Of a stretch of DNA of 64,000 nt, positions 39,671-48,635 are shown one piece after another. The stretch lies in IMG/VR virus record IMGVR_UViG_3300045988_034366. One strand, written 5' to 3'. A program made the position numbers and the translations under genes. The notes below the pieces were generated by a model that was not told the origin of the DNA, did no database searches, and saw only the letters and a list, made by a program, of their open reading frames with translations. How positions within the stretch are numbered: the stretch's first letter is position 1; each line of letters begins with the position of its first letter. Source of the stretch: a virus.

Positions 39671-40378
39671 ATGGAAACTCGTAAAATCACTATCGTTTCA
39701 ACTAAGAGTCAATCTAAGAAAGTTATCATGTCTTCTGCTACTACTCTTGCAGAACTGAAGTCTGACCTGAGACAGAATGGCATTGACTATGAAGGTATGT
39801 CCTTCTTTGAAGGTACTTCTAAAGTAGAGTTAAAGAATGATGCTTCTGTTCTTCCTCATGATGTACCTTGGAAAGGCACTGTTACCAATGAATTGGTATT
39901 CATGCTCACCAATACTAACAAGAAAATTAGGTCTGGTGCAATGAGCAGAATGGAGGCATATGCTGAAATCAAGAGAATGGGTCTTCAAGATGCTTGCCTT
40001 AAGAAGTTTGGGAAGAACTTCACTATGTGTAAGACTGCTGACCTTATTGCATTGGTACAGAGTAATAGTGCTGCAAAGCCTGCTCCTGCTCCTAAAGCTG
40101 AGGCTAAGAAGGAGGAGACACCTGTAAACACTCCTGTAGCACCTGCAAGTAATGGCGGTGAATGTGTTGATACTGCATCAAGAGCTGCTATCAGTAAGTT
40201 GGTGGAAATCCTTGAGGACAATGGCACAATTGAGGATTATGAGAAAGAGGAAGTGCTTGGTATTCTTGGGGGTGAAGTAGCTGTAACTACTGCAACCTCC
40301 GAGGAGTATAAGCCTAAGTCAGCTTCTCCTTACTCTGATGATGAGATTGATGATATGTTTAATGACATGGACATCTAA
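39671..40378 (+). CDS. hypothetical protein: compact N-terminal domain + SAP/HeH-like motif + Ala/Pro/Glu linker + acidic tail
   Basis: 235 aa. EAYAEIKRMGLQDACLKKFGKNFTMCKTADLIALV resembles a SAP/HeH DNA-binding motif. Whether the N-terminal ~85 aa is a beta-grasp is unknown. Confidence 0.6.
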   Translation: METRKITIVSTKSQSKKVIMSSATTLAELKSDLRQNGIDYEGMSFFEGTSKVELKNDASVLPHDVPWKGTVTNELVFMLTNTNKKIRSGAMSRMEAYAEIKRMGLQDACLKKFGKNFTMCKTADLIALVQSNSAAKPAPAPKAEAKKEETPVNTPVAPASNGGECVDTASRAAISKLVEILEDNGTIEDYEKEEVLGILGGEVAVTTATSEEYKPKSASPYSDDEIDDMFNDMDI

Positions 40379-40402
40379 GGGCAAAAAAAAATATGTAATG
40401 GT

Positions 40403-40440
40403 AGGCAGGAGATATTATATCTCCTCCTACTTTTTTTTTA
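40403..40440 (+). terminator. intrinsic terminator (bidirectional architecture)
   Basis: Perfect palindrome AGGAGATAT-T-ATATCTCCT flanked by A9 upstream and T10 downstream. Confidence 0.85.
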
Positions 40441-40441
40441 C

Positions 40442-41752
40442 ATGAGTATGAGTGAAGAAAATATTAAGCGATTTAATGAAAGTGTACATACACTCTATAA
40501 TGCTATAATGGATAAACCTCTTCAAGTGCTTGGCATATTCAATGACTTCTTTGGAGCAGACAAAGTTGATATGCAGGGTGTTTGGAATGAAGATAGACTA
40601 AGGTCTTGGCTTGAAGTAGAGCCTATTACTTCATATCTCTATAGGGGTAACTCAAATGTAACATCTAGTGAATGGGATACATATCATACTAAGAGTATAA
40701 TGGATTTGTCTCAAAGTGAATTTGAATGGGCACTCTCATCATTATCTCATGAAGATACAATAGAAAGTATTGTTAGTAGTAAGTTCGACAATATGTTTAT
40801 CCTTGTACATTTTCCGCATGTAAGGATTACTAATGAGCATGATAGATATGTAGATATTAACCATCTGTGGGCTAAGATTAAAATAACATCTGAGGGCACT
40901 ATGAATGGTAATTTTACTCTCAATAGGTCTGAATACCAAGCTATTCACTTTATTAGTAACTATATGCACAGTCATGTAAGTAGCATTCCTAAAGATGACC
41001 TTACTAGGTTTATGAGTCCCTGCACTGGAGATGGGCCTATCAATAGTACTATATCATCTTTATATAGAGAATTTGATAGTGACCTTTGGCAGTTATTCTG
41101 TCTTGAACTCAGTAAGTATGTTACTGTGGAATCTATTTCAGGAAGACCTTATCATTATCTTGAAAAAATAGGTACTAGTAATATGGATACAGGAGTATCT
41201 TCCTTTATTGCATTTAATAATCCTACTAGATACTGGGATTCTTCTAATGCAGCACTAGACAGGTTAAGAAAGTTTGTCAAGTACTTTGTTCAAGGAAATC
41301 ATTTGAAGTTTAACTATGTGAATGGCTCTTATTCCATAGGAATGTCTTTCATAGAGTACATAGTGCTAATTAGCAATGAATTTATTAAATGGTACAATAG
41401 GCAATTCAATGATAAGAAAATGACTACTACTCTTGAAAGCCTAGAAAGAACCCATGTAGTTAGAGAATGTATTATTAGCAATGGTAAAATCTACTATGAT
41501 AGCAGCAGAAACAATATCAATACCCTTTCTTCTTATATAGGAAAGAAAGTTTGCACTTTCAAAGGAGTGAAGATTACTCTTAGCATATCAGACATATCTG
41601 AGGTAAATGCTGAGAACAAGAGTATCATACTTGACCCTCAGACTGCATTATTTATATTAAATCAAATCCTCAAAGTATTAAATTATAGATATGGAAGGAA
41701 AACAGCTAACCATACAGAGTACCAAGTTGGTACAGAAGTTAGGTACATATAA
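40442..41752 (+). CDS. unknown 436-aa protein, first gene of the JAB/E1 operon
   Basis: Long ORF beginning 2 nt after the terminator's T run. No motif recognised with confidence. NYMHSHV...FMSPCTGDG is noted as a possible His/Cys active-site pair. Confidence 0.65.
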   Translation: MSMSEENIKRFNESVHTLYNAIMDKPLQVLGIFNDFFGADKVDMQGVWNEDRLRSWLEVEPITSYLYRGNSNVTSSEWDTYHTKSIMDLSQSEFEWALSSLSHEDTIESIVSSKFDNMFILVHFPHVRITNEHDRYVDINHLWAKIKITSEGTMNGNFTLNRSEYQAIHFISNYMHSHVSSIPKDDLTRFMSPCTGDGPINSTISSLYREFDSDLWQLFCLELSKYVTVESISGRPYHYLEKIGTSNMDTGVSSFIAFNNPTRYWDSSNAALDRLRKFVKYFVQGNHLKFNYVNGSYSIGMSFIEYIVLISNEFIKWYNRQFNDKKMTTTLESLERTHVVRECIISNGKIYYDSSRNNINTLSSYIGKKVCTFKGVKITLSISDISEVNAENKSIILDPQTALFILNQILKVLNYRYGRKTANHTEYQVGTEVRYI

Positions 41753-42902
41753 TTATAAGCTGGTTATACCAGCTGAAGTTGAGAGAAAAATAAGATTTGC
41801 CTGCCAAAGAGTATGGAATACAGAGTGGTCAGGCACATTATTTTTTACACATGAAGGTTCATTTGAGAACAATGACCTTGTAATAAGATGTGTGGATATT
41901 TACATTATGGATATTGGTACTCAAGCCTATACAGAGTTTGATATGAATCCTGATGTAATAGCATATATGTGTGAGCATTCAGAGCTACTTGATTGTCAAA
42001 TGGGCCTTATCCATTCTCATAATAATATGTCTACTTTCTTTAGTGGCACTGATACTGCTACCTTGAAGGAAGAGGGCAGAGATAGGAACAACTTTGTATC
42101 TCTCATTGTGAACAATGAAGGAAGCTATACAGCTGCTATCACTAGAAGAGTGAAAAGTAAGAGTGTGAAAGAGTCTGTATCCTATGAGTTCTTTGGAGAT
42201 GGTGAAAAGCATGATACCAAGGAGTATGTGTCTGAAGAGAATGAGATTGAGTGGTTCTATCTCAACATAGTCAAGGAAGGAGATACCTTTTCCTTTCAAG
42301 ACATGGATGTTAGGTTTGAGGAAATCAAGAAGAGGAAAGCTGAGAAAGCTAAAGAGGCTGAAATGGCTAGGAAACAAACTTCTCAGGTTACTTCATATAG
42401 ACCTTCAACTGTTATAAATTCTTATGGCACAAAGGCAGGGTCTGCCAGCACTATGGCTAGTAAGAAGGCTATTGGTCAAACATCACTCTTTGATGGCATA
42501 GATGATTGGGATTCTGATAACTTTGATATACCATATGGTACAGCTAAATTTGATAGGAACACCATCAGACAGCTTACTTTGCAGTTGATTACTGGTAGTA
42601 TTATCATACCTAATGATAGTAAGATTGACATCAAGAAGTGGGCAGCCTCTATGCCTGCAATGTATCAGAAGAGATTTGGCAAAGGAGAAGAAGGCATGAA
42701 GCTCTTTGAGTTGTGGGCAGATACATATACTGAGTTCCTCTGTTGGTATGCAACAGATAGAAAACTTGAAGCTCAAGGTATGGATGACACTGAGATATGT
42801 GCTATATGTGCCCATGATATGATTGAAGAATTAACTAAACTCCCTGAGAATGAATATATCAAGGGGTATATTGATGCACTTCAGAAATACTTAATATTAT
42901 GA
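41691..42902 (+). CDS. JAB/MPN (JAMM) metalloprotease-domain protein
   Basis: 403 aa. Complete JAMM signature: upstream Glu (NTEWSG), then HSHNNMSTFFSGTD, which is H-x-H-x7-S-x2-D. Long non-catalytic C-terminal half. Confidence 0.8.
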   Translation: MEGKQLTIQSTKLVQKLGTYNYKLVIPAEVERKIRFACQRVWNTEWSGTLFFTHEGSFENNDLVIRCVDIYIMDIGTQAYTEFDMNPDVIAYMCEHSELLDCQMGLIHSHNNMSTFFSGTDTATLKEEGRDRNNFVSLIVNNEGSYTAAITRRVKSKSVKESVSYEFFGDGEKHDTKEYVSEENEIEWFYLNIVKEGDTFSFQDMDVRFEEIKKRKAEKAKEAEMARKQTSQVTSYRPSTVINSYGTKAGSASTMASKKAIGQTSLFDGIDDWDSDNFDIPYGTAKFDRNTIRQLTLQLITGSIIIPNDSKIDIKKWAASMPAMYQKRFGKGEEGMKLFELWADTYTEFLCWYATDRKLEAQGMDDTEICAICAHDMIEELTKLPENEYIKGYIDALQKYLIL

Positions 42903-43849
42903 ATGGAGAAACAATAATTCAAGCAATAACTCAAGAAAACATTCCTGCAACTATGCAGGAGGCTTATAATTCCCTTATAGAAAATCTCAATGAAAATACT
43001 ATACCTGAGTCAGACAGTGCTATAGAAGATGATGGTGACAGCATTAGCTTTGACCTTTCAGAGGAAGAACAGGCTATCCTTGACCAAGCTGTAGAAGATG
43101 CACATCAAGAGATACCTACAAACTCTGCAACTTTGCTTGTAGATGAAGCTACTAGTAGATTCAGTTCTGCTATATGGTATGAGAAGATACGGGAAAAGAC
43201 TATTGTTCTTGCAGGTGTAGGAGGTATTGGCAGTTATGTGGGATTCCTGCTTGCAAGAATGAAACCTGCCTCTTTGTTCATTTATGACAATGATATAGTG
43301 GAAGCTGTCAATATGTCAGGCCAGCTATATAGTCGAAATGATATTGGAGTTACTAAGGTAGCTGCCCTTGCAAACATGGTCAAGGATTATGCTGACTATG
43401 GTAGTGTGTTTGCCATAGCTGAAAGATTCACTCCTGAATGTGAACCTACAGATATTATGATTTGTGGGTTTGACAATATGGAAGCTAGAAGAGTGTTCTT
43501 CACAAAGTGGGTTGAGCACGTTCACAGTAAACCTGAGGAGGAAAGAGCTAATTGTCTATTCATTGATGGAAGACTTGCAGCTGAAGAATTTCAAGTTCTC
43601 TGTATCAAGGGAGATGATTTGTTCAACATTGATAGGTATCAGAAGGAATACTTGTTCACTGATGCAGAAGCTGATGAGACTATTTGTTCTTATAAACAGA
43701 CTACTTTCTGTGCAAATATGATTGCATCTTATATGGTTAATTTGTTTGTAAATTTCTGTGCTAATCAATGTGAGCCTCTCATTGACAGAGACCTGCCATT
43801 CCTTACTACATATAATGCAGAAACGATGTATCTTAAAACCGAAGCATAA
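42899..43849 (+). CDS. E1-like adenylating enzyme (ThiF/MoeB/UBA family)
   Basis: 316 aa. Rossmann loop VLAGVGGIGSYVG, then YDNDIVEAVNMSGQLY and GFDNMEARRVF in the ThiF order. ATGA overlap with the JAB gene. Confidence 0.8.
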   Translation: MNGETIIQAITQENIPATMQEAYNSLIENLNENTIPESDSAIEDDGDSISFDLSEEEQAILDQAVEDAHQEIPTNSATLLVDEATSRFSSAIWYEKIREKTIVLAGVGGIGSYVGFLLARMKPASLFIYDNDIVEAVNMSGQLYSRNDIGVTKVAALANMVKDYADYGSVFAIAERFTPECEPTDIMICGFDNMEARRVFFTKWVEHVHSKPEEERANCLFIDGRLAAEEFQVLCIKGDDLFNIDRYQKEYLFTDAEADETICSYKQTTFCANMIASYMVNLFVNFCANQCEPLIDRDLPFLTTYNAETMYLKTEA

Positions 43850-44634
43850 TGGAATTTTCAGCTAGATTTATACGTGAAATGACTAGGCCATTTTACGATG
43901 CCCAGCCTCTCCGCTTTAATTCAAGGGATACAAGTAATCCTATTACTCTTGATAGTAATAATATGTTCAGTAAAAGTCTTGTTGTAGATACTACAGGAGA
44001 CAATATTGAAATACCCTCAATTGCTAGGACATATTACGAAAACATTATCCGTGATAATTTGATTCATAGTAATGTAAGGGTAGAGAGAATTATACTGCCT
44101 CTTTATACAAGTGGTAATAGTCAAAGTAGAAGAACTTTTGATGGTATCATGAGAGAGTTCTTCTGCAAACCCCCCCTTAACCAAAGAGTGCTAAAGGTTA
44201 CAACTAATAAAGGTGATACTTATTATGGTGGATATGGCCTTATATTAGATGAGGAGTTTAATCCTCTCCTAATGTGTGGACTAAAGGCCAGAAAGGTGAT
44301 ATCAGAACATGGTGATGATGCAGAAGTTGTACATATACAATACTATAGAACTGTCTGTCATGTTAGTCCTATAGTATTTACAGAGCCTAACAAGTTAATT
44401 AATAAGGGCATCATAAAGAAGCTGATTCCTCTATATACCACTATGGACACAACTTTTCCAAATGTCAGTGTTGGCACTTCAAATAGCCCTGATAGTAGGA
44501 AAGTAGAAGTGATTATAGATGATTTCAGCAAGTTCTTCATTTCCCCTATTGTACCTACTCCCAATAAGTGCAGTAATGATGCACTTAATAAGTGTCTGAA
44601 TGATAACATAGAAGACATTCTGTATCTAATATGA
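43849..44634 (+). CDS. unknown 261-aa protein, last gene of the JAB/E1 operon
   Basis: ORF coupled by a TAATG overlap to the E1 gene and by an ATGA overlap to UDG. No recognisable motif. Confidence 0.65.
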   Translation: MEFSARFIREMTRPFYDAQPLRFNSRDTSNPITLDSNNMFSKSLVVDTTGDNIEIPSIARTYYENIIRDNLIHSNVRVERIILPLYTSGNSQSRRTFDGIMREFFCKPPLNQRVLKVTTNKGDTYYGGYGLILDEEFNPLLMCGLKARKVISEHGDDAEVVHIQYYRTVCHVSPIVFTEPNKLINKGIIKKLIPLYTTMDTTFPNVSVGTSNSPDSRKVEVIIDDFSKFFISPIVPTPNKCSNDALNKCLNDNIEDILYLI

Positions 44635-45308
44635 CAGTAGAAGAATATTTTGGGGATTGGGTTCATGTCTTTGACATGAAGGAACTCCACAAGGTGATGT
44701 ATAAGTTAAGAGTGGAATATCAGAGAAAGAAGATATGTCCTGCTCAACCTGATGTATTTAGAGCCTTTGAGTTATGTCCCCTTAAAGACTTGAAAGTAGT
44801 TATGTTAGGACAAGACCCCTATCCCCAAAAGGGAGTTGCTACTGGCATACTATTTGGAAATAGGGCTGATGTGCAAGAGAAAAATTTATCTCCATCTCTA
44901 CAAATCGTTAAAGAGGCAGCTATAAATTTTGAGATTCCAAAGAATAATTGTATCTTTGACCCCACTTTGGAGAGTTGGGCAAAACAGGGGATACTAATGA
45001 TAAATTCTGCTCTCACAGTAGAAATGAATAAGGTTGGTTCTCATGCGATGATATGGAGACCATTCACAATTGCTTTATTAAAACACTTATCAGAGTGTGA
45101 GACTGGCATTATTTATGTTCTATTTGGGAGACAGGCTCAAACATTTAAGCCCTACATTAACAAACAATTCAATAACATTCTTGAAATTGAACATCCAGCA
45201 TACTATGCAAGGCTCAATAAGAGGATGCCATCTGAATTGTTTGCTACTATAAGTAATATGTGTAAAGACAAATATGGAGTACCAATTAAATGGTACCAAG
45301 AGTGTTAA
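44631..45308 (+). CDS. ung: uracil-DNA glycosylase (family 1-like)
   Basis: 225 aa. Motifs VVMLGQDPYP, PSLQIV, QGILMINSALTV and EHPAYY lie in UNG order. Confidence 0.8.
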   Translation: MTVEEYFGDWVHVFDMKELHKVMYKLRVEYQRKKICPAQPDVFRAFELCPLKDLKVVMLGQDPYPQKGVATGILFGNRADVQEKNLSPSLQIVKEAAINFEIPKNNCIFDPTLESWAKQGILMINSALTVEMNKVGSHAMIWRPFTIALLKHLSECETGIIYVLFGRQAQTFKPYINKQFNNILEIEHPAYYARLNKRMPSELFATISNMCKDKYGVPIKWYQEC

Positions 45309-46406: not shown

Positions 46407-46572
46407 TAAATTGCCTGTATTGGAATATGACCCTAATCCTATTATTTTCAAGGATAATGTGGATGCTACTATAAGAGAGGTAAAACAAAGACTTGGGGTT
46501 TTACAGACTCTTAAGGCAGAAATAGATTACCGATTAACTTTAACTCATGCAGATGATGAAGAGTTTACGTGA
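46366..46572 (+). CDS. small hypothetical protein (uncertain)
   Basis: 68-aa ORF overlapping both neighbours. Confidence 0.3.
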   Translation: MQQNVIHKLIQQANKLPVLEYDPNPIIFKDNVDATIREVKQRLGVLQTLKAEIDYRLTLTHADDEEFT

Positions 46573-47284
46573 TATTTCATGGCAAGTAAGTGAAGAGGGG
46601 TATAGGGCAGACCCTGCACTTAGCTACTCTACTCTTGCAAGATATGAAAGAGAGGGGTTTAATAACTTGGATAAGCTATTTGACAGGATAGAAACCCCCT
46701 CCCTTACCTTTGGCTCTGCTGTAGATTCTATCATTACAGGTGGGCAAGAGGAGTTTGATGAAAGGTTCATGGTAGCTGAGTTTCCCTCAATGCCTGACTC
46801 TATTGTGAAGATAATAAAATCTTTGTATAAACAATATGCTGGAACATATAGGAGCCTGCTTAATATATCTGATAGTTCAATTATTAGAGAAACTGAAGAC
46901 CAAAACTATCAAATGAATTGGAAACCTGAAACAAGGGCTAAGGTTATCAAAGAAAAAGGTACTGACTACTATAATTTATTGTTTGTAGCAGGTGATAGGT
47001 GTATCATAGATACTCAGACTTATCAGGATGTAGTTAATGCAGTTAGAGTATTGAAGGAAAGTAGCTCTACCAAGTTATACTTTGCAGATGACAATCCCTT
47101 TGAGCCTGATATTGAAAGATTATATCAGTTGAAGTTTAAGGGAGAGTTTGATGGTATAACCTATAGAAATATGGCTGACTTAATTATAGTCAATCATAAA
47201 GAGAAATGGGTAAAGCCAGTAGATTTGAAAACAAGTTCCCATACAGAGTGGGACTTTTATAAGTCCTTTGTAGATTGGAGATAT
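46547..47284 (+). CDS. RecB/lambda-Exo-like PD-(D/E)xK nuclease, exon 1
   Basis: The frame carries VDLKTSS (the D-x-K-T motif). The ORF is truncated at 47291 by an intron-encoded stop. Exon end is +/-3 nt. Confidence 0.65.
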
Positions 47285-47309
47285 GAAAAATAAGTAATTT
47301 ATTTATTAA

Positions 47310-47341
47310 TTTGGAGATACGAGAAATTTTACTTATCTTTG
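47310..47341 (+). promoter_or_regulatory. Bacteroidota-type promoter inside intron (TTTG-N20-TATCTTTG)
   Basis: Perfect consensus, 25 nt upstream of the LAGLIDADG ORF start. Confidence 0.65.
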
Positions 47342-47365
47342 CATTGAATTATAAATCAATGTATT

Positions 47366-48013
47366 ATGAGAAAGTATAATTTTAATGAACATTATTTTGA
47401 TATTATAGATTGTCAAGAAAAAGCTTATTGGTTAGGATTCTTTGCAGCGGATGGATATAATCATGTAGGTAAAGGTTGTATAGAGTTTAGATTACATAAA
47501 CAAGATAAAGAAATATTAGAAAAATTCAAATCTTGTATAGAAGCTAATAACCCCATTGGATTATATAAACAAACTTATTGTAATTTGACTTTATATTCCC
47601 AACATCTATGTAATAAGTTGTCTGAATATGGGTTAAGTCAAGCAAAGACTTACACATTGCAAATTCCTCAATTAGATTATAAATTAATGAGACATTTTAT
47701 AAGAGGGTATTATGATGGTGATGGCTGTTTTTCTGTAACAAAAAGAAAAGATAGAACTGAAAATAGTCTAATTTACCAATTTAATATTACTGGAATGGAA
47801 AATCCTCTTAGAAAAATGCAAGAGCATTTAATAAATAATGTAGGAGTTGTTGATAATGGGCTAAAGCATAGAAAGTCTACTATTGCTGTCACTATTCACT
47901 ATAGTGGAAAGAATGTATGTAAAAGAATACTTGATTATCTATATCAGGATGCTACTATATATCTTCAAAGAAAATATAATAAATATAAAGAATATTGTAT
48001 CTCGGCAGAGTAA
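47366..48013 (+). CDS. LAGLIDADG homing endonuclease (double-motif)
   Basis: 215 aa with two LAGLIDADG motifs (LGFFAADGY and IRGYYDGDGCF). Confidence 0.85.
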   Translation: MRKYNFNEHYFDIIDCQEKAYWLGFFAADGYNHVGKGCIEFRLHKQDKEILEKFKSCIEANNPIGLYKQTYCNLTLYSQHLCNKLSEYGLSQAKTYTLQIPQLDYKLMRHFIRGYYDGDGCFSVTKRKDRTENSLIYQFNITGMENPLRKMQEHLINNVGVVDNGLKHRKSTIAVTIHYSGKNVCKRILDYLYQDATIYLQRKYNKYKEYCISAE

Positions 48014-48320
48014 TCTGCAATAATAAAAAACCTCGTGAATTCAGGGAACATCCTAAGACTTGAAATTTAATATATAGGTCTAAAATTGTTTGAAATATAA
48101 CAGCCTATAATATATAAATGGGTTATTCTAGGACAATCCTGAGCCAAGCCTTAATAATAAGGAAGGTGCAACGACTATCCCTTTATGGGAGTACACTCAA
48201 GTGAGTGGAAGTGCGAGGCTCCTAAGAAATTAGGATGATGATATAGTCTCATCTATATGGTAACATATAGCAGTTCATAAGAGAACGCAGATAAATTAAC
48301 GACTTATCTGGAAGATAATG

Positions 48321-48635
48321 GATATTCAAGCCAGACTATATTGGTCTATTATAAGACAAAATATGGATAAGGATGAGTACTTCAAAGACTTCAAGCTACT
48401 TGACTATGATTTCATTGTAGTCAATAAGAGGACTTTAACTCCTCTTGTATGGAACTGTCCCTTTACTCAAGCACAAGGTACATTGAGATTTGGTAATAAT
48501 TCTCAAATTGAAATGAGAAGTCCCTTTGAGATAGGAAAGGAGCTTAATTCCTATCTCACTTCAAGACCAAAAGTGCCTATGGGAATTAATGAGACTGGTA
48601 CTAATAATTTAAAAGATTGGTTAAATAAACTATGA
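48321..48635 (+). CDS. RecB/lambda-Exo-like nuclease, exon 2
   Basis: The frame opens at 48300. DIQARLYW supplies the QxxxY motif expected after DLKT. Confidence 0.65.
   Translation, partial: DIQARLYWSIIRQNMDKDEYFKDFKLLDYDFIVVNKRTLTPLVWNCPFTQAQGTLRFGNNSQIEMRSPFEIGKELNSYLTSRPKVPMGINETGTNNLKDWLNKL

Follow-up and report, generated by a model that had tools for sequence, protein, structure and literature searches.

To our knowledge, the prokaryotic systems characterized so far that combine an E1 enzyme, a JAB peptidase and a ubiquitin-like (Ubl) protein are either anti-phage defenses (type II of the anti-phage signaling system based on cyclic oligonucleotides (CBASS), Bil and Bub) or sulfur carriers. 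A minimal single-domain E1, UBA5, activates UFM1, a Ubl synthesized in precursor form that has a single Gly at its end. The bacterial E1/JAB/Ubl systems are anti-phage, and in Type I Bub the BubCD JAB domain cuts the BubAB Ubl fusion right after a conserved Gly (PMC11601596). In phage lambda, Iyer et al. described a Ubl domain in TAPI with a conserved terminal Gly followed by another domain, where the JAB domain of TAPK is predicted to cleave (PMC1779556). Here we describe a five-gene cassette (P1–P5) in a 64,000-nt stretch of viral DNA (IMG/VR record IMGVR_UViG_3300045988_034366; the window), which is a segment of a crAss-like phage genome; its structural genes run to ~26 kb on the minus strand, and from ~31 kb the plus strand carries the replication genes. 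Six open reading frames (ORFs), P1–P5 and a gene for uracil-DNA glycosylase (UDG), occupy 39671–45308 at the coordinates given by an earlier note made from the sequence of the window. That note had singled out an E1/JAB pair with two large orphan partners; we propose, with a probability of roughly 55%, that the region encodes a phage-borne Ubl protein-modifier system of five co-inherited genes.

Our best-supported result concerns P1, which, judging from its model, is the previously missing ubiquitin-like component of the cassette. The gene (39671–40378, plus strand) encodes a 235-aa putative pro-Ubl fusion homologous to crAss001 Gp79. An AlphaFold2 (AF2) model built from 146 diverse homologs has a mean predicted local distance difference test (pLDDT) score of 85. 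Residues 1–81 form a β-β-α-β-β-..-β beta-grasp (pLDDT 95–98), continued by a flexible tail T82-N-K-K-I-R-S-G89, with pLDDT below 65 over residues 82–91; domain and tail together span 39671–39937, the G89 codon being 39935–39937. The leading Foldseek matches in the PDB were SUMO1, ubiquitin, TINCR, NEDD8, ISG15, UBX and DIX (probability 1.00), other high-ranking matches were further beta-grasp domains, and neither ThiS nor MoaD was among the 50 matches listed. Target-normalized TM-scores reached 0.6–0.73, with E-values of 2e-3 to 1e-2 that are modest because an 80-residue domain sits in a 235-residue query. Sequence profiles miss this fold (hhalign against ubiquitin, SUMO and NEDD8 gave P = 0.06, and Pfam gave no match), which is why it has so far gone unannotated in a family of 894 clusters at 50% identity, P1 alone being represented by over 5,000 variants in public sequence data. 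The earlier note had tentatively suggested that the 235-aa protein begins with a beta-grasp. The confident model, its SUMO, ubiquitin and NEDD8 matches and the conservation of G89 described below bear this out, so that a Ubl fold does stand next to the E1 and JAB genes.

The tail is among the most conserved stretches of P1 (K84-K85-I86-[KR]87-S88-G89), though it is predicted to be flexible. G89 is present in 146 of 146 homologs, S88 in 141 and K84 in 139. G89 was also kept in 75 of 76 IMG/VR loci, the single exception being an alignment gap; these loci come from the best 80 of 300 IMG/VR stretches carrying an E1 relative, found through an E1 alignment. The spacing from L75 to G89 is fixed at 13 residues in 143 of the 146 homologs. 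From G89 to R93 the spacing varies between 2 and 9 residues, and the residue directly after G89 varies as well (A in 89 homologs, S in 13, M in 11, V in 7, others in the remainder). In the Flavobacterium phage Fpv3, the same region reads ...KQVKSG-GRGDG-LSY. In the alignment, a tail of fixed length with a variable junction after G89 is the pattern of a Ubl whose C-terminus adjoins a processing site.

Beyond the junction, the AF2 model of P1 contains a three-helix region at aa 93–133 (39947–40069; helices 93–102, 106–113 and 122–133, pLDDT 93–97), in which R93, T118 and L125 are nearly invariant. We infer a SAP/HeH-like domain here; two homologs gave weak Pfam SAP matches (E ~0.1). A disordered Ala/Pro/Lys/Glu-rich linker then leads to a C-terminal helical module with an acidic/aromatic tail (aa 168–235, 40172–40375), comprising helices 168–183 and 189–199 and a terminal helix 223–230 within the tail, which ends SPYSDDEIDDMFNDMDI and has the consensus S.YS..EI..MF among homologs. 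In some P1 homologs (P0436, P0464, P0461), the SAP-like region and the C-terminal tail are separated by an inserted ribosomal L7/L12 C-terminal domain (Pfam Ribosomal_L12, 1e-16; 49% identity to E. coli L12 over 65 aa). This variant stands in the same P2-JAB-ThiF-P5-UDG cassette (loci L094, 5797–6798, and L095, 1236–2237), and the combination of a Ubl with an L7/L12 domain recalls the eukaryotic ubiquitin–ribosomal protein fusions.

P3 (41691–42902, plus strand; crAss001 Gp77) encodes a 403-aa JAB/JAMM (MPN+) metallopeptidase with the JAB domain at ~aa 28–160. Its match to Pfam Prok-JAB (PF14464; E = 3.4e-5, 24.1 bits) falls marginally under the 25-bit gathering cutoff. The motif E45...H108-S-H110-x7-S118-G-T-D121 is in register with the structure of Pyrococcus JAMM1 (5lda; HSH...SGKD), and the active-site residues, whose positional equivalence the earlier note had named as a check, align with it residue for residue. 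E45, H108, S118 and the neighboring motif residues are kept in 77–78 of 78 IMG/VR loci, and the site is also kept in Fpv3, Dulem and cr111. At the level of sequence, it is this motif evidence rather than the Pfam score that decides for the JAB assignment. No family was detected for the helical C-terminal half of ~240 residues, and PADLOC returned no Cap3 or BilC match to the protein.

P4 (42899–43849, plus strand; crAss001 Gp76) encodes a 316-aa single-domain E1/ThiF-like adenylyltransferase, in which a variable acidic N-terminal extension precedes one MoeB-sized adenylation domain (core aa 76–316). It matches Pfam ThiF (PF00899) with E = 2.6e-17 and 63.2 bits against a cutoff of 28.1 bits, and hhalign against E. 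coli MoeB/ThiF gave a probability of 97.2 over residues 76–316 (with manually entered reference sequences, here and in the residue comparisons). The residues G106xG108G109, D130, D132, K153, D192, R197 and C263 are kept in 79–80 of 80 loci; the adenylation domain is complete, its nucleotide-binding and Mg residues included. C263 (ICSYKQT), invariant in all 80, aligns with C187 of MoeB and C184 of ThiF, the crossover-loop Cys that is the thioester or acyl-disulfide site in those enzymes. The CxxC zinc motifs of MoeB/ThiF were absent from P4 in the same hhalign comparison. Among solved structures, the nearest to P4 by profile is UBA5 (5e-12, with the similarity confined to the nucleotide-binding half), then MccB, PaaA, TcdA, MoeB, ThiF, NAE, Cap2 and BubCD, the last at 3.8e-4 in the PDB profile search. 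The best NCBIfam matches are ThiF models (PRK08644, 1.8e-17; thiF_fam2, 3.6e-14; 63.7 vs 159 bits), the ThiF/MoeB scores as a whole lying at 20–64 bits against cutoffs of 152–450, and PADLOC gave weak matches to Cap2 E1-E2 models (1.2e-11) and BilD (1e-4). Such a profile places P4 in the E1 superfamily, outside every characterized subfamily. The E1/JAB pair reported earlier is real, resting on the JAMM alignment of P3 and the ThiF match of P4, and the JAMM motif, the ThiF/E1 core and the ATGA, TAATG and ATGA junctions listed at that time are all present.

The three recognized components are inherited together. In a phage collection of 50,697 records searched by tblastn, the Ubl region of P1 matched 74 records and the JAB protein 74 with the same taxonomic breakdown; the E1 matched those 74 plus four Xanthomonas phages and one Erwinia phage. 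P2 matched, at 1e-5, the 45 of these records that are not from Flavobacterium phages, and the homolog in Flavobacterium Fpv phages was recognized through shared motifs and Foldseek against BFVD. The order primase>P1>P2>P3>P4>P5>UDG holds in 73 of the 80 IMG/VR loci, the other seven being cut by contig ends. In crAss001 the syntenic block is Gp79–Gp74, where GenBank labels Gp77 'metalloprotease domain' and Gp76 'thiamine biosynthesis protein ThiF'. The block is also syntenic in bajarodcaudo virus 1, the closest deposited genome (~77% nucleotide identity), and in DAC15, DAC17, Kehishuvirus and Kolpuevirus isolates, several cr-numbered uncultured crassviruses and Dulem virus 41; crAss001 and DAC15 have been cultured on Bacteroides hosts. 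The distant Fipvunavirus phages of Flavobacterium psychrophilum (Fpv3) share all five genes and their order, with UDG flanking the cassette at its opposite end. Conservation relative to crAss001 is 60% for the Ubl, 63% for the JAB core, 68% for the E1 core, 66% for UDG, 43% for P2 and 35% for P5, a sequence pattern that fits a recognized triad with faster-evolving partners. Lying between primase and UDG, the cassette belongs to the replication module as a constant component and does not form a variable accessory island.

Among deposited phages, the cassette is confined to Steigviridae-type crassviruses, two unclassified relatives and the Flavobacterium Fipvunavirus phages; in the phage collection, no match came from the prototypical crAssphage or from any other family of Crassvirales. 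The 'crAss-like' label of the earlier note consequently holds for the lineage of the window, a crassvirus, and not as a general property, the cassette being of Steigviridae type with two relatives and Fipvunavirus besides. In 185,579 prokaryotic species (one genome each) only seven loci were found, all on crassvirus-looking contigs of metagenome-assembled genomes (MAGs), so at that sensitivity the cassette is phage-specific. These contigs (L007–L013), some of 94–120 kb, are binned in MAGs labeled Bacilli, Acholeplasmatales, Spirochaetia, Clostridium, Eubacteriales and Alistipes finegoldii, and are probably mis-binned phage contigs. UDG adjoins the cassette in Steigviridae. Its adjacency is not universal, since in the divergent Alistipes-labeled locus L011 (3890–5239) two other genes follow the cassette instead, by eye the first ThyX-type thymidylate synthase-like and the second ClpP-type protease-like.

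A related ThiF-like gene (~29% identity) occurs in jumbo Xanthomonas phages (PhiXhv-15; L005, 4268–8518), after a gene for an 892-aa protein with Cys-rich ends and ahead of ORFs of 70 and 228 aa. The jumbo Xanthomonas phages gave no tblastn match to P1 or the JAB protein, and this locus may represent a different E1-based system. We considered the 892-aa protein as a fused P2/E2 on account of its 'HPH...CLG' motif. In a MAFFT alignment the motif does not align to the P2 site, and, as phages of this type have no P1 and no JAB, the protein is not used as evidence.

P2 (40442–41752, plus strand; crAss001 Gp78) is a 436-aa orphan protein with an invariant Cys/His site and a candidate non-canonical transfer enzyme. 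From the crAss-like phages to Fpv3, residues P125, N131, R162, Y174, H176, S177, H178, C194, G196, E230, S231, G234 and P236 are invariant; they are kept in 76 of 76 IMG/VR loci, C194 being the sole invariant Cys. The His/Cys site flagged in this protein by the earlier note is hence genuine. In the AF2 model (mean pLDDT 63.7; confident at 1–165 and 200–230), an N-terminal helical region is followed by three long antiparallel strands (119–162) and two helices (199–228). The motif Y174-x-H176-S-H178, 15 residues and C194-x-G196 come after the three-strand sheet and before the two helices, in a poorly modeled loop. This order of sheet, His, Cys and helices in the model recalls an E2 in its arrangement. 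The proposal that the 436-aa protein is a divergent E2 fared worse than its His/Cys site, as Foldseek, a PDB profile search, Pfam and hhalign were all negative for UBC similarity. Judging from the sequence pattern, we regard P2 as an orphan Cys/His protein and as the best candidate for a catalytic partner, in a possible non-UBC role.

Other assignments of P2 were tried and rejected. Its 'YMHSH' might suggest a degenerate second MPN/JAB domain, and hhalign against P3 gave a probability of 0.2 over an unrelated region. Scattered Foldseek matches to T-fold/GTP cyclohydrolase I or EndoG-like nucleases were noise (probability <0.1), and the search against BFVD returned uncharacterized phage homologs only.

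P5 (43849–44634, plus strand; crAss001 Gp75), always the last gene of the cassette and present in 80 of 80 IMG/VR loci, encodes a fast-evolving 261-aa protein of unassigned fold. Identity across loci ranges from 27 to 98% (median 49%), and the only invariant residues are G128, G130 and L140; no Cys, His or Ser is conserved and no catalytic signature was seen. A role as PCNA/processivity factor was considered and dropped, with one of 18 members matching Pfam DNA_PPF at E = 0.084 and hhalign against human PCNA, E2s and ubiquitin giving probabilities of at most 0.2. The 261-aa protein had also been put forward as a Ubl, and it is not detectably one by hhalign, Pfam or PDB searches. P1, P2 and P5 matched no Pfam, NCBIfam or PADLOC family, and their PHROG families, where there are any, are of 'unknown function'; the description of the two flanking proteins P2 and P5 as lacking a recognizable family thus stands.

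An intrinsic-terminator-like hairpin (GTAGGCAGGAGATAT/ATATCTCCTCCTAC) followed by T9 lies at 40401–40439 on the plus strand, between P1 and the block of four enzyme genes, and ends 2 nt 5′ of the P2 start codon. It had been reported as a strong terminator right before the operon; a hairpin does stand directly 5′ of the four-gene block, and not in front of 39671. crAss001, bajarodcaudo virus 1 and the large majority of 53 distinct IMG/VR spacers preserve this structure with stems that differ in sequence; a few of the spacers are shortened by the start estimate, and two measure 595 nt. With just 2 nt between the end of the T-run and the P2 ATG, a promoter cannot fit before P2, and P2 through UDG would be read by terminator read-through. 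Having its own terminator, P1 is probably made in excess over the enzymes, and such an excess would fit a stoichiometric modifier with catalytic enzymes.

The T-run after the P1 terminator is 6–10 long, and in several relatives it is found with tandem duplication or triplication (for example TTTTTTTTTTAC repeated; L023, L025, L030, L066). This variation suggests a slippage-prone tuning of read-through into the enzyme genes. In cr106_1 (NC_055871.1, 43376–43690), the tblastn match to P1 ends at residue 102, partly under an annotated HNH endonuclease. In two IMG/VR loci (L031, L033), the P1–P2 spacer is 595 nt against the usual ~60 nt. Both cr106_1 and the 595-nt spacers are probably homing-endonuclease insertions.

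From P2 through UDG the genes are connected by start/stop overlaps: P2 and P3 overlap by 62 nt (41691–41752), and the following junctions are ATGA (P3/P4), TAATG (P4/P5) and ATGA (P5/UDG). In crAss001 and bajarodcaudo virus 1 the P2/P3 overlap has the same 62 nt; it measures 56 nt in cr111, 80 nt in Dulem virus 41 and 125 nt in Fpv3. Relative to P2, P3 is read in the +1 frame, with a rare AGG codon at the start of the overlap. A +1 frameshift yielding a P2-JAB fusion is conceivable. The last gene, UDG (44631–45308, plus strand), encodes a family-1 uracil-DNA glycosylase (NCBIfam UDG, 8.9e-46); it counts here as a neighbor of the cassette and not as an established member of the system. Further downstream, a PD-(D/E)XK exonuclease gene (46547–48635) is split into 46547–47293 and 48318–48635 by an insert containing a LAGLIDADG-type ORF (47366–48013) and a group I intron (Rfam RF00028 at 47977–48270; 89.6 bits, E = 5e-23). 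Its crAss001 homolog, Gp70, is uninterrupted.

What P1, P3 and P4 show in fold and motif, together with their strict co-occurrence, the synteny and the conservation of the Ubl tail, leads us to a hypothetical scheme of cleavage, activation and transfer. P1 would be a precursor in which the N-terminal Ubl with its tail to G89 is fused to the module of SAP-like region, linker and acidic tail. P3 would cut it after G89 (G89|A90) and expose a C-terminal Gly, as BubCD does with BubAB, and may also strip the Ubl from targets. P4 would then adenylate G89 with ATP and take the Ubl onto C263 as a thioester. From there the Ubl could be passed to a target amine directly or via C194 of P2, in which case P2 would act as an E2-like carrier outside the UBC family, and P5 may serve as an adaptor or substrate. 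Since the cassette is fixed in the replication module, the putative targets that we favor are proteins of the replisome or of repair, or host proteins present where replication takes place.

Several observations weigh against this scheme. G89 is internal, so that its exposure needs cleavage, and no homolog ends at G89; the residues from R93 on are also highly conserved, and part of the tail motif could serve the SAP-like domain. In P4, N138-M-S-G141-Q142 replaces the canonical N-x-x-R-Q in all members, G141 being invariant in 80 of 80 loci, and all its scores against NCBIfam ThiF models are far under the cutoffs, with a sulfur-carrier ancestry of this E1 still conceivable on sequence grounds. 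P2 had no UBC match in Foldseek against the PDB (best E = 1.6) or in the PDB profile search, and no UQ_con or Prok-E2 match in Pfam with 10 diverse members. Against five eukaryotic E2s, whose sequences were manually entered, hhalign gave a probability of 0.07. The P2 loop with H-S-H and C194 is poorly modeled (pLDDT 48–62), and because the model is poor at just this H-S-H...C loop, the role given to P2 is a guess. P5 has no Pfam or PDB match, E2 included. The most far-reaching form of the proposal is put forward as tentative and as a doubtful proposition overall: that phages of the crAss001 type and the Flavobacterium Fpv phages run a complete self-encoded Ubl conjugation cascade during lytic replication, with P2 as a non-UBC transfer enzyme, replisome, repair or host proteins as targets and, in some lineages, the Ubl delivered fused to an L7/L12 domain.

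The internal position of G89 would also fit a Ubl that is never released. The P1 beta-grasp might then serve a DNA-associated protein of the replisome as a permanent interaction domain, comparable to the Ubl domains of Rad23 or parkin, while the E1 and JAB enzymes act elsewhere: the E1 by modifying a peptide or protein C-terminus as MccB and PaaA do, or by dehydrating or activating a carboxylated nucleoside in the manner of TcdA, and the JAB as an ordinary processing protease. MccB, PaaA and TcdA are indeed among the closest solved relatives of P4, a terminator separates P1 transcriptionally from the enzymes, the SAP-like region is almost as conserved as the Ubl, and no E2 was found. We nevertheless consider this unlikely. 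The Ubl co-occurs with JAB and E1 in 74 of the 50,697 records, with fixed adjacency, and non-conjugated domains of this kind normally lose the terminal Gly, whereas here G89 is invariant at the end of a flexible tail of fixed length, followed by a variable junction. In every characterized case a JAB with a Ubl-Gly forms a processing pair (Bub; predicted for lambda TAPI/TAPK), and genes for a small precursor peptide or for the modification of tRNA or nucleosides are absent from the cassette.

The absence of an E2 would also suit a sulfur carrier, in which the JAB-cleaved Ubl of P1 is adenylated by P4 and converted to a C-terminal thiocarboxylate, as happens in ThiS/ThiF, MoaD/MoeB, CysO/MoeZ/Mec+ and QbsE/QbsC/QbsD, and P2 and/or P5 make a thio-modified nucleotide, base or cofactor for replication. 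Ubl, E1 and JAB without a recognizable E2 is the composition of the established CysO and QbsE systems; P4 is of MoeB/ThiF size, has its best NCBIfam matches among ThiF models and keeps a Cys equivalent to ThiF C184, and P2 combines its invariant Cys with a possible metal site (HxH...C...E). We rate this as distinctly unlikely, for the tail of P1 ends in S-G and not in the G-G of all characterized sulfur carriers, and its structural matches are led by ubiquitin, SUMO and NEDD8, with no ThiS or MoaD among the 50 listed. P4 lacks the CxxC zinc motifs and stays far under the NCBIfam ThiF/MoeB cutoffs (63.7 vs 159 bits), Pfam and NCBIfam reveal no rhodanese, cysteine desulfurase, PP-loop ATPase or radical-SAM domain in the cassette, and P2 has no PP-loop motif. 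Least probable of these alternatives is counter-defense, with the JAB stripping host conjugates or the phage Ubl and E1 flooding or mis-modifying host defense proteins (type II CBASS, Bil, Bub); it is a matter of biological role, and the biochemistry proposed above for a conjugated Ubl could hold alongside it. The weak PADLOC similarity of P4 to Cap2 E1-E2 (1.2e-11) and BilD (1e-4) speaks for it, and mimicry is plausible given that bacterial E1/JAB/Ubl systems are anti-phage (PMC11601596). However, anti-defense genes are usually variable accessory genes, whereas this cassette has a fixed position in the replication module and constant gene content in every genome examined, and P3 has no PADLOC match to Cap3 or BilC.

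Here, the E1/JAB/Ubl toolkit known from defense and sulfur-carrier systems is a constant component of the replication module in a lytic phage lineage among the most abundant of the human gut. If the Ubl is conjugated, phages would use Ubl modification offensively or for their own replication, as eukaryotic viruses and cells do; if P2 takes part as we speculate, it would be a new kind of Ubl-transfer enzyme, an E2-like class of its own, and these would be, as far as we have found, the first bacterial viruses with a complete Ubl conjugation system. The names 'thiamine biosynthesis protein' and 'metalloprotease' given in the databases are corrected as well, and a fold is assigned to the large orphan P1/Gp79 family. 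The crAss001 genes carry annotations, and no characterization of the block was found in the open-access literature; there and in bioRxiv we found no paper tying Crassvirales to a Ubl system or discussing these genes.

Compared with the described systems, the cassette lacks the features of the PRTRC, CBASS and sulfur-carrier systems. Membership in PRTRC, a ThiF-related cassette of ICEs and plasmids, was rejected, as P3 scores 12.4 bits against PRTRC_A (TIGR03735; cutoff 101.8), P4 scores 31 bits against PRTRC_ThiF (TIGR03736; cutoff 144.75) and P1, P2 and P5 are unmatched; PADLOC scores for Bil and Cap2/Cap3 are likewise far under their cutoffs. Type II CBASS, with Cap2 (E2-E1) and Cap3 (JAB), shares the E1/JAB pair and the weak Cap2 matches of P4 (1.2e-11). 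However, CBASS has no Ubl, conjugating the C-terminus of the CD-NTase instead, and its E2 is fused to the E1, whereas the cassette has neither CD-NTase nor effector. TAPI with TAPK (JAB-NlpC/P60) of lambda/T1 is the one previously noted phage pair of Ubl and JAB; it lacks an E1, lies in the tail module, and belongs to another Ubl family with another JAB architecture.

UBA5, a minimal single-domain E1, is the closest solved relative of P4 (profile 5e-12), yet the cassette has no partner like UFC1 or UFL1, and its peptidase is a JAB and not a Cys protease. The sulfur-carrier systems CysO/MoeZ/Mec+ of M. tuberculosis and QbsE/QbsC/QbsD of Pseudomonas combine, like the cassette, a Ubl, a ThiF/MoeB-type E1 and a JAB without an E2, and in them the JAB trims residues after the terminal Gly. 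The cassette differs from them in its S-G tail, in the lack of recognizable sulfur donor or acceptor enzymes and of a zinc CxxC in P4, and in that P1 resembles ubiquitin/SUMO rather than ThiS/MoaD by Foldseek.

The anti-phage system Bil (BilA Ubl, BilB E2, BilC JAB, BilD E1) shares with the cassette a single operon that encodes a JAB, an E1 and a Ubl with its C-terminal Gly, and neither has an E3. No UBC-type E2 was detected in the latter, however; P4 is one MoeB-sized domain with a PADLOC BilD match of just 1e-4, the Ubl forms an internal part of a larger protein, and the genes lie in a phage replication module. With Type I Bub (BubAB, a Ubl-E2 fusion; BubCD, a JAB-E1 fusion; BubE) the cassette shares a Ubl that forms the N-terminal part of a fusion, with a Gly at the boundary, and adjacent JAB and E1. 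The Ubl of the cassette is fused to an all-helical module of SAP-like region and acidic tail and that of Bub to an E2, and JAB and E1 are separate ORFs with an ATGA overlap rather than a JAB-E1 fusion. P4 keeps its conserved Cys, whereas Bub works via oxyesters without a catalytic Cys; the cassette has no match to DUF6527 (serine protease), and it resides in lytic phages, unlike Bub (6E.1), which is found in bacterial defense islands. In its manner of working the cassette thus resembles Bil and Type I Bub most, yet it departs from the defining features of each.

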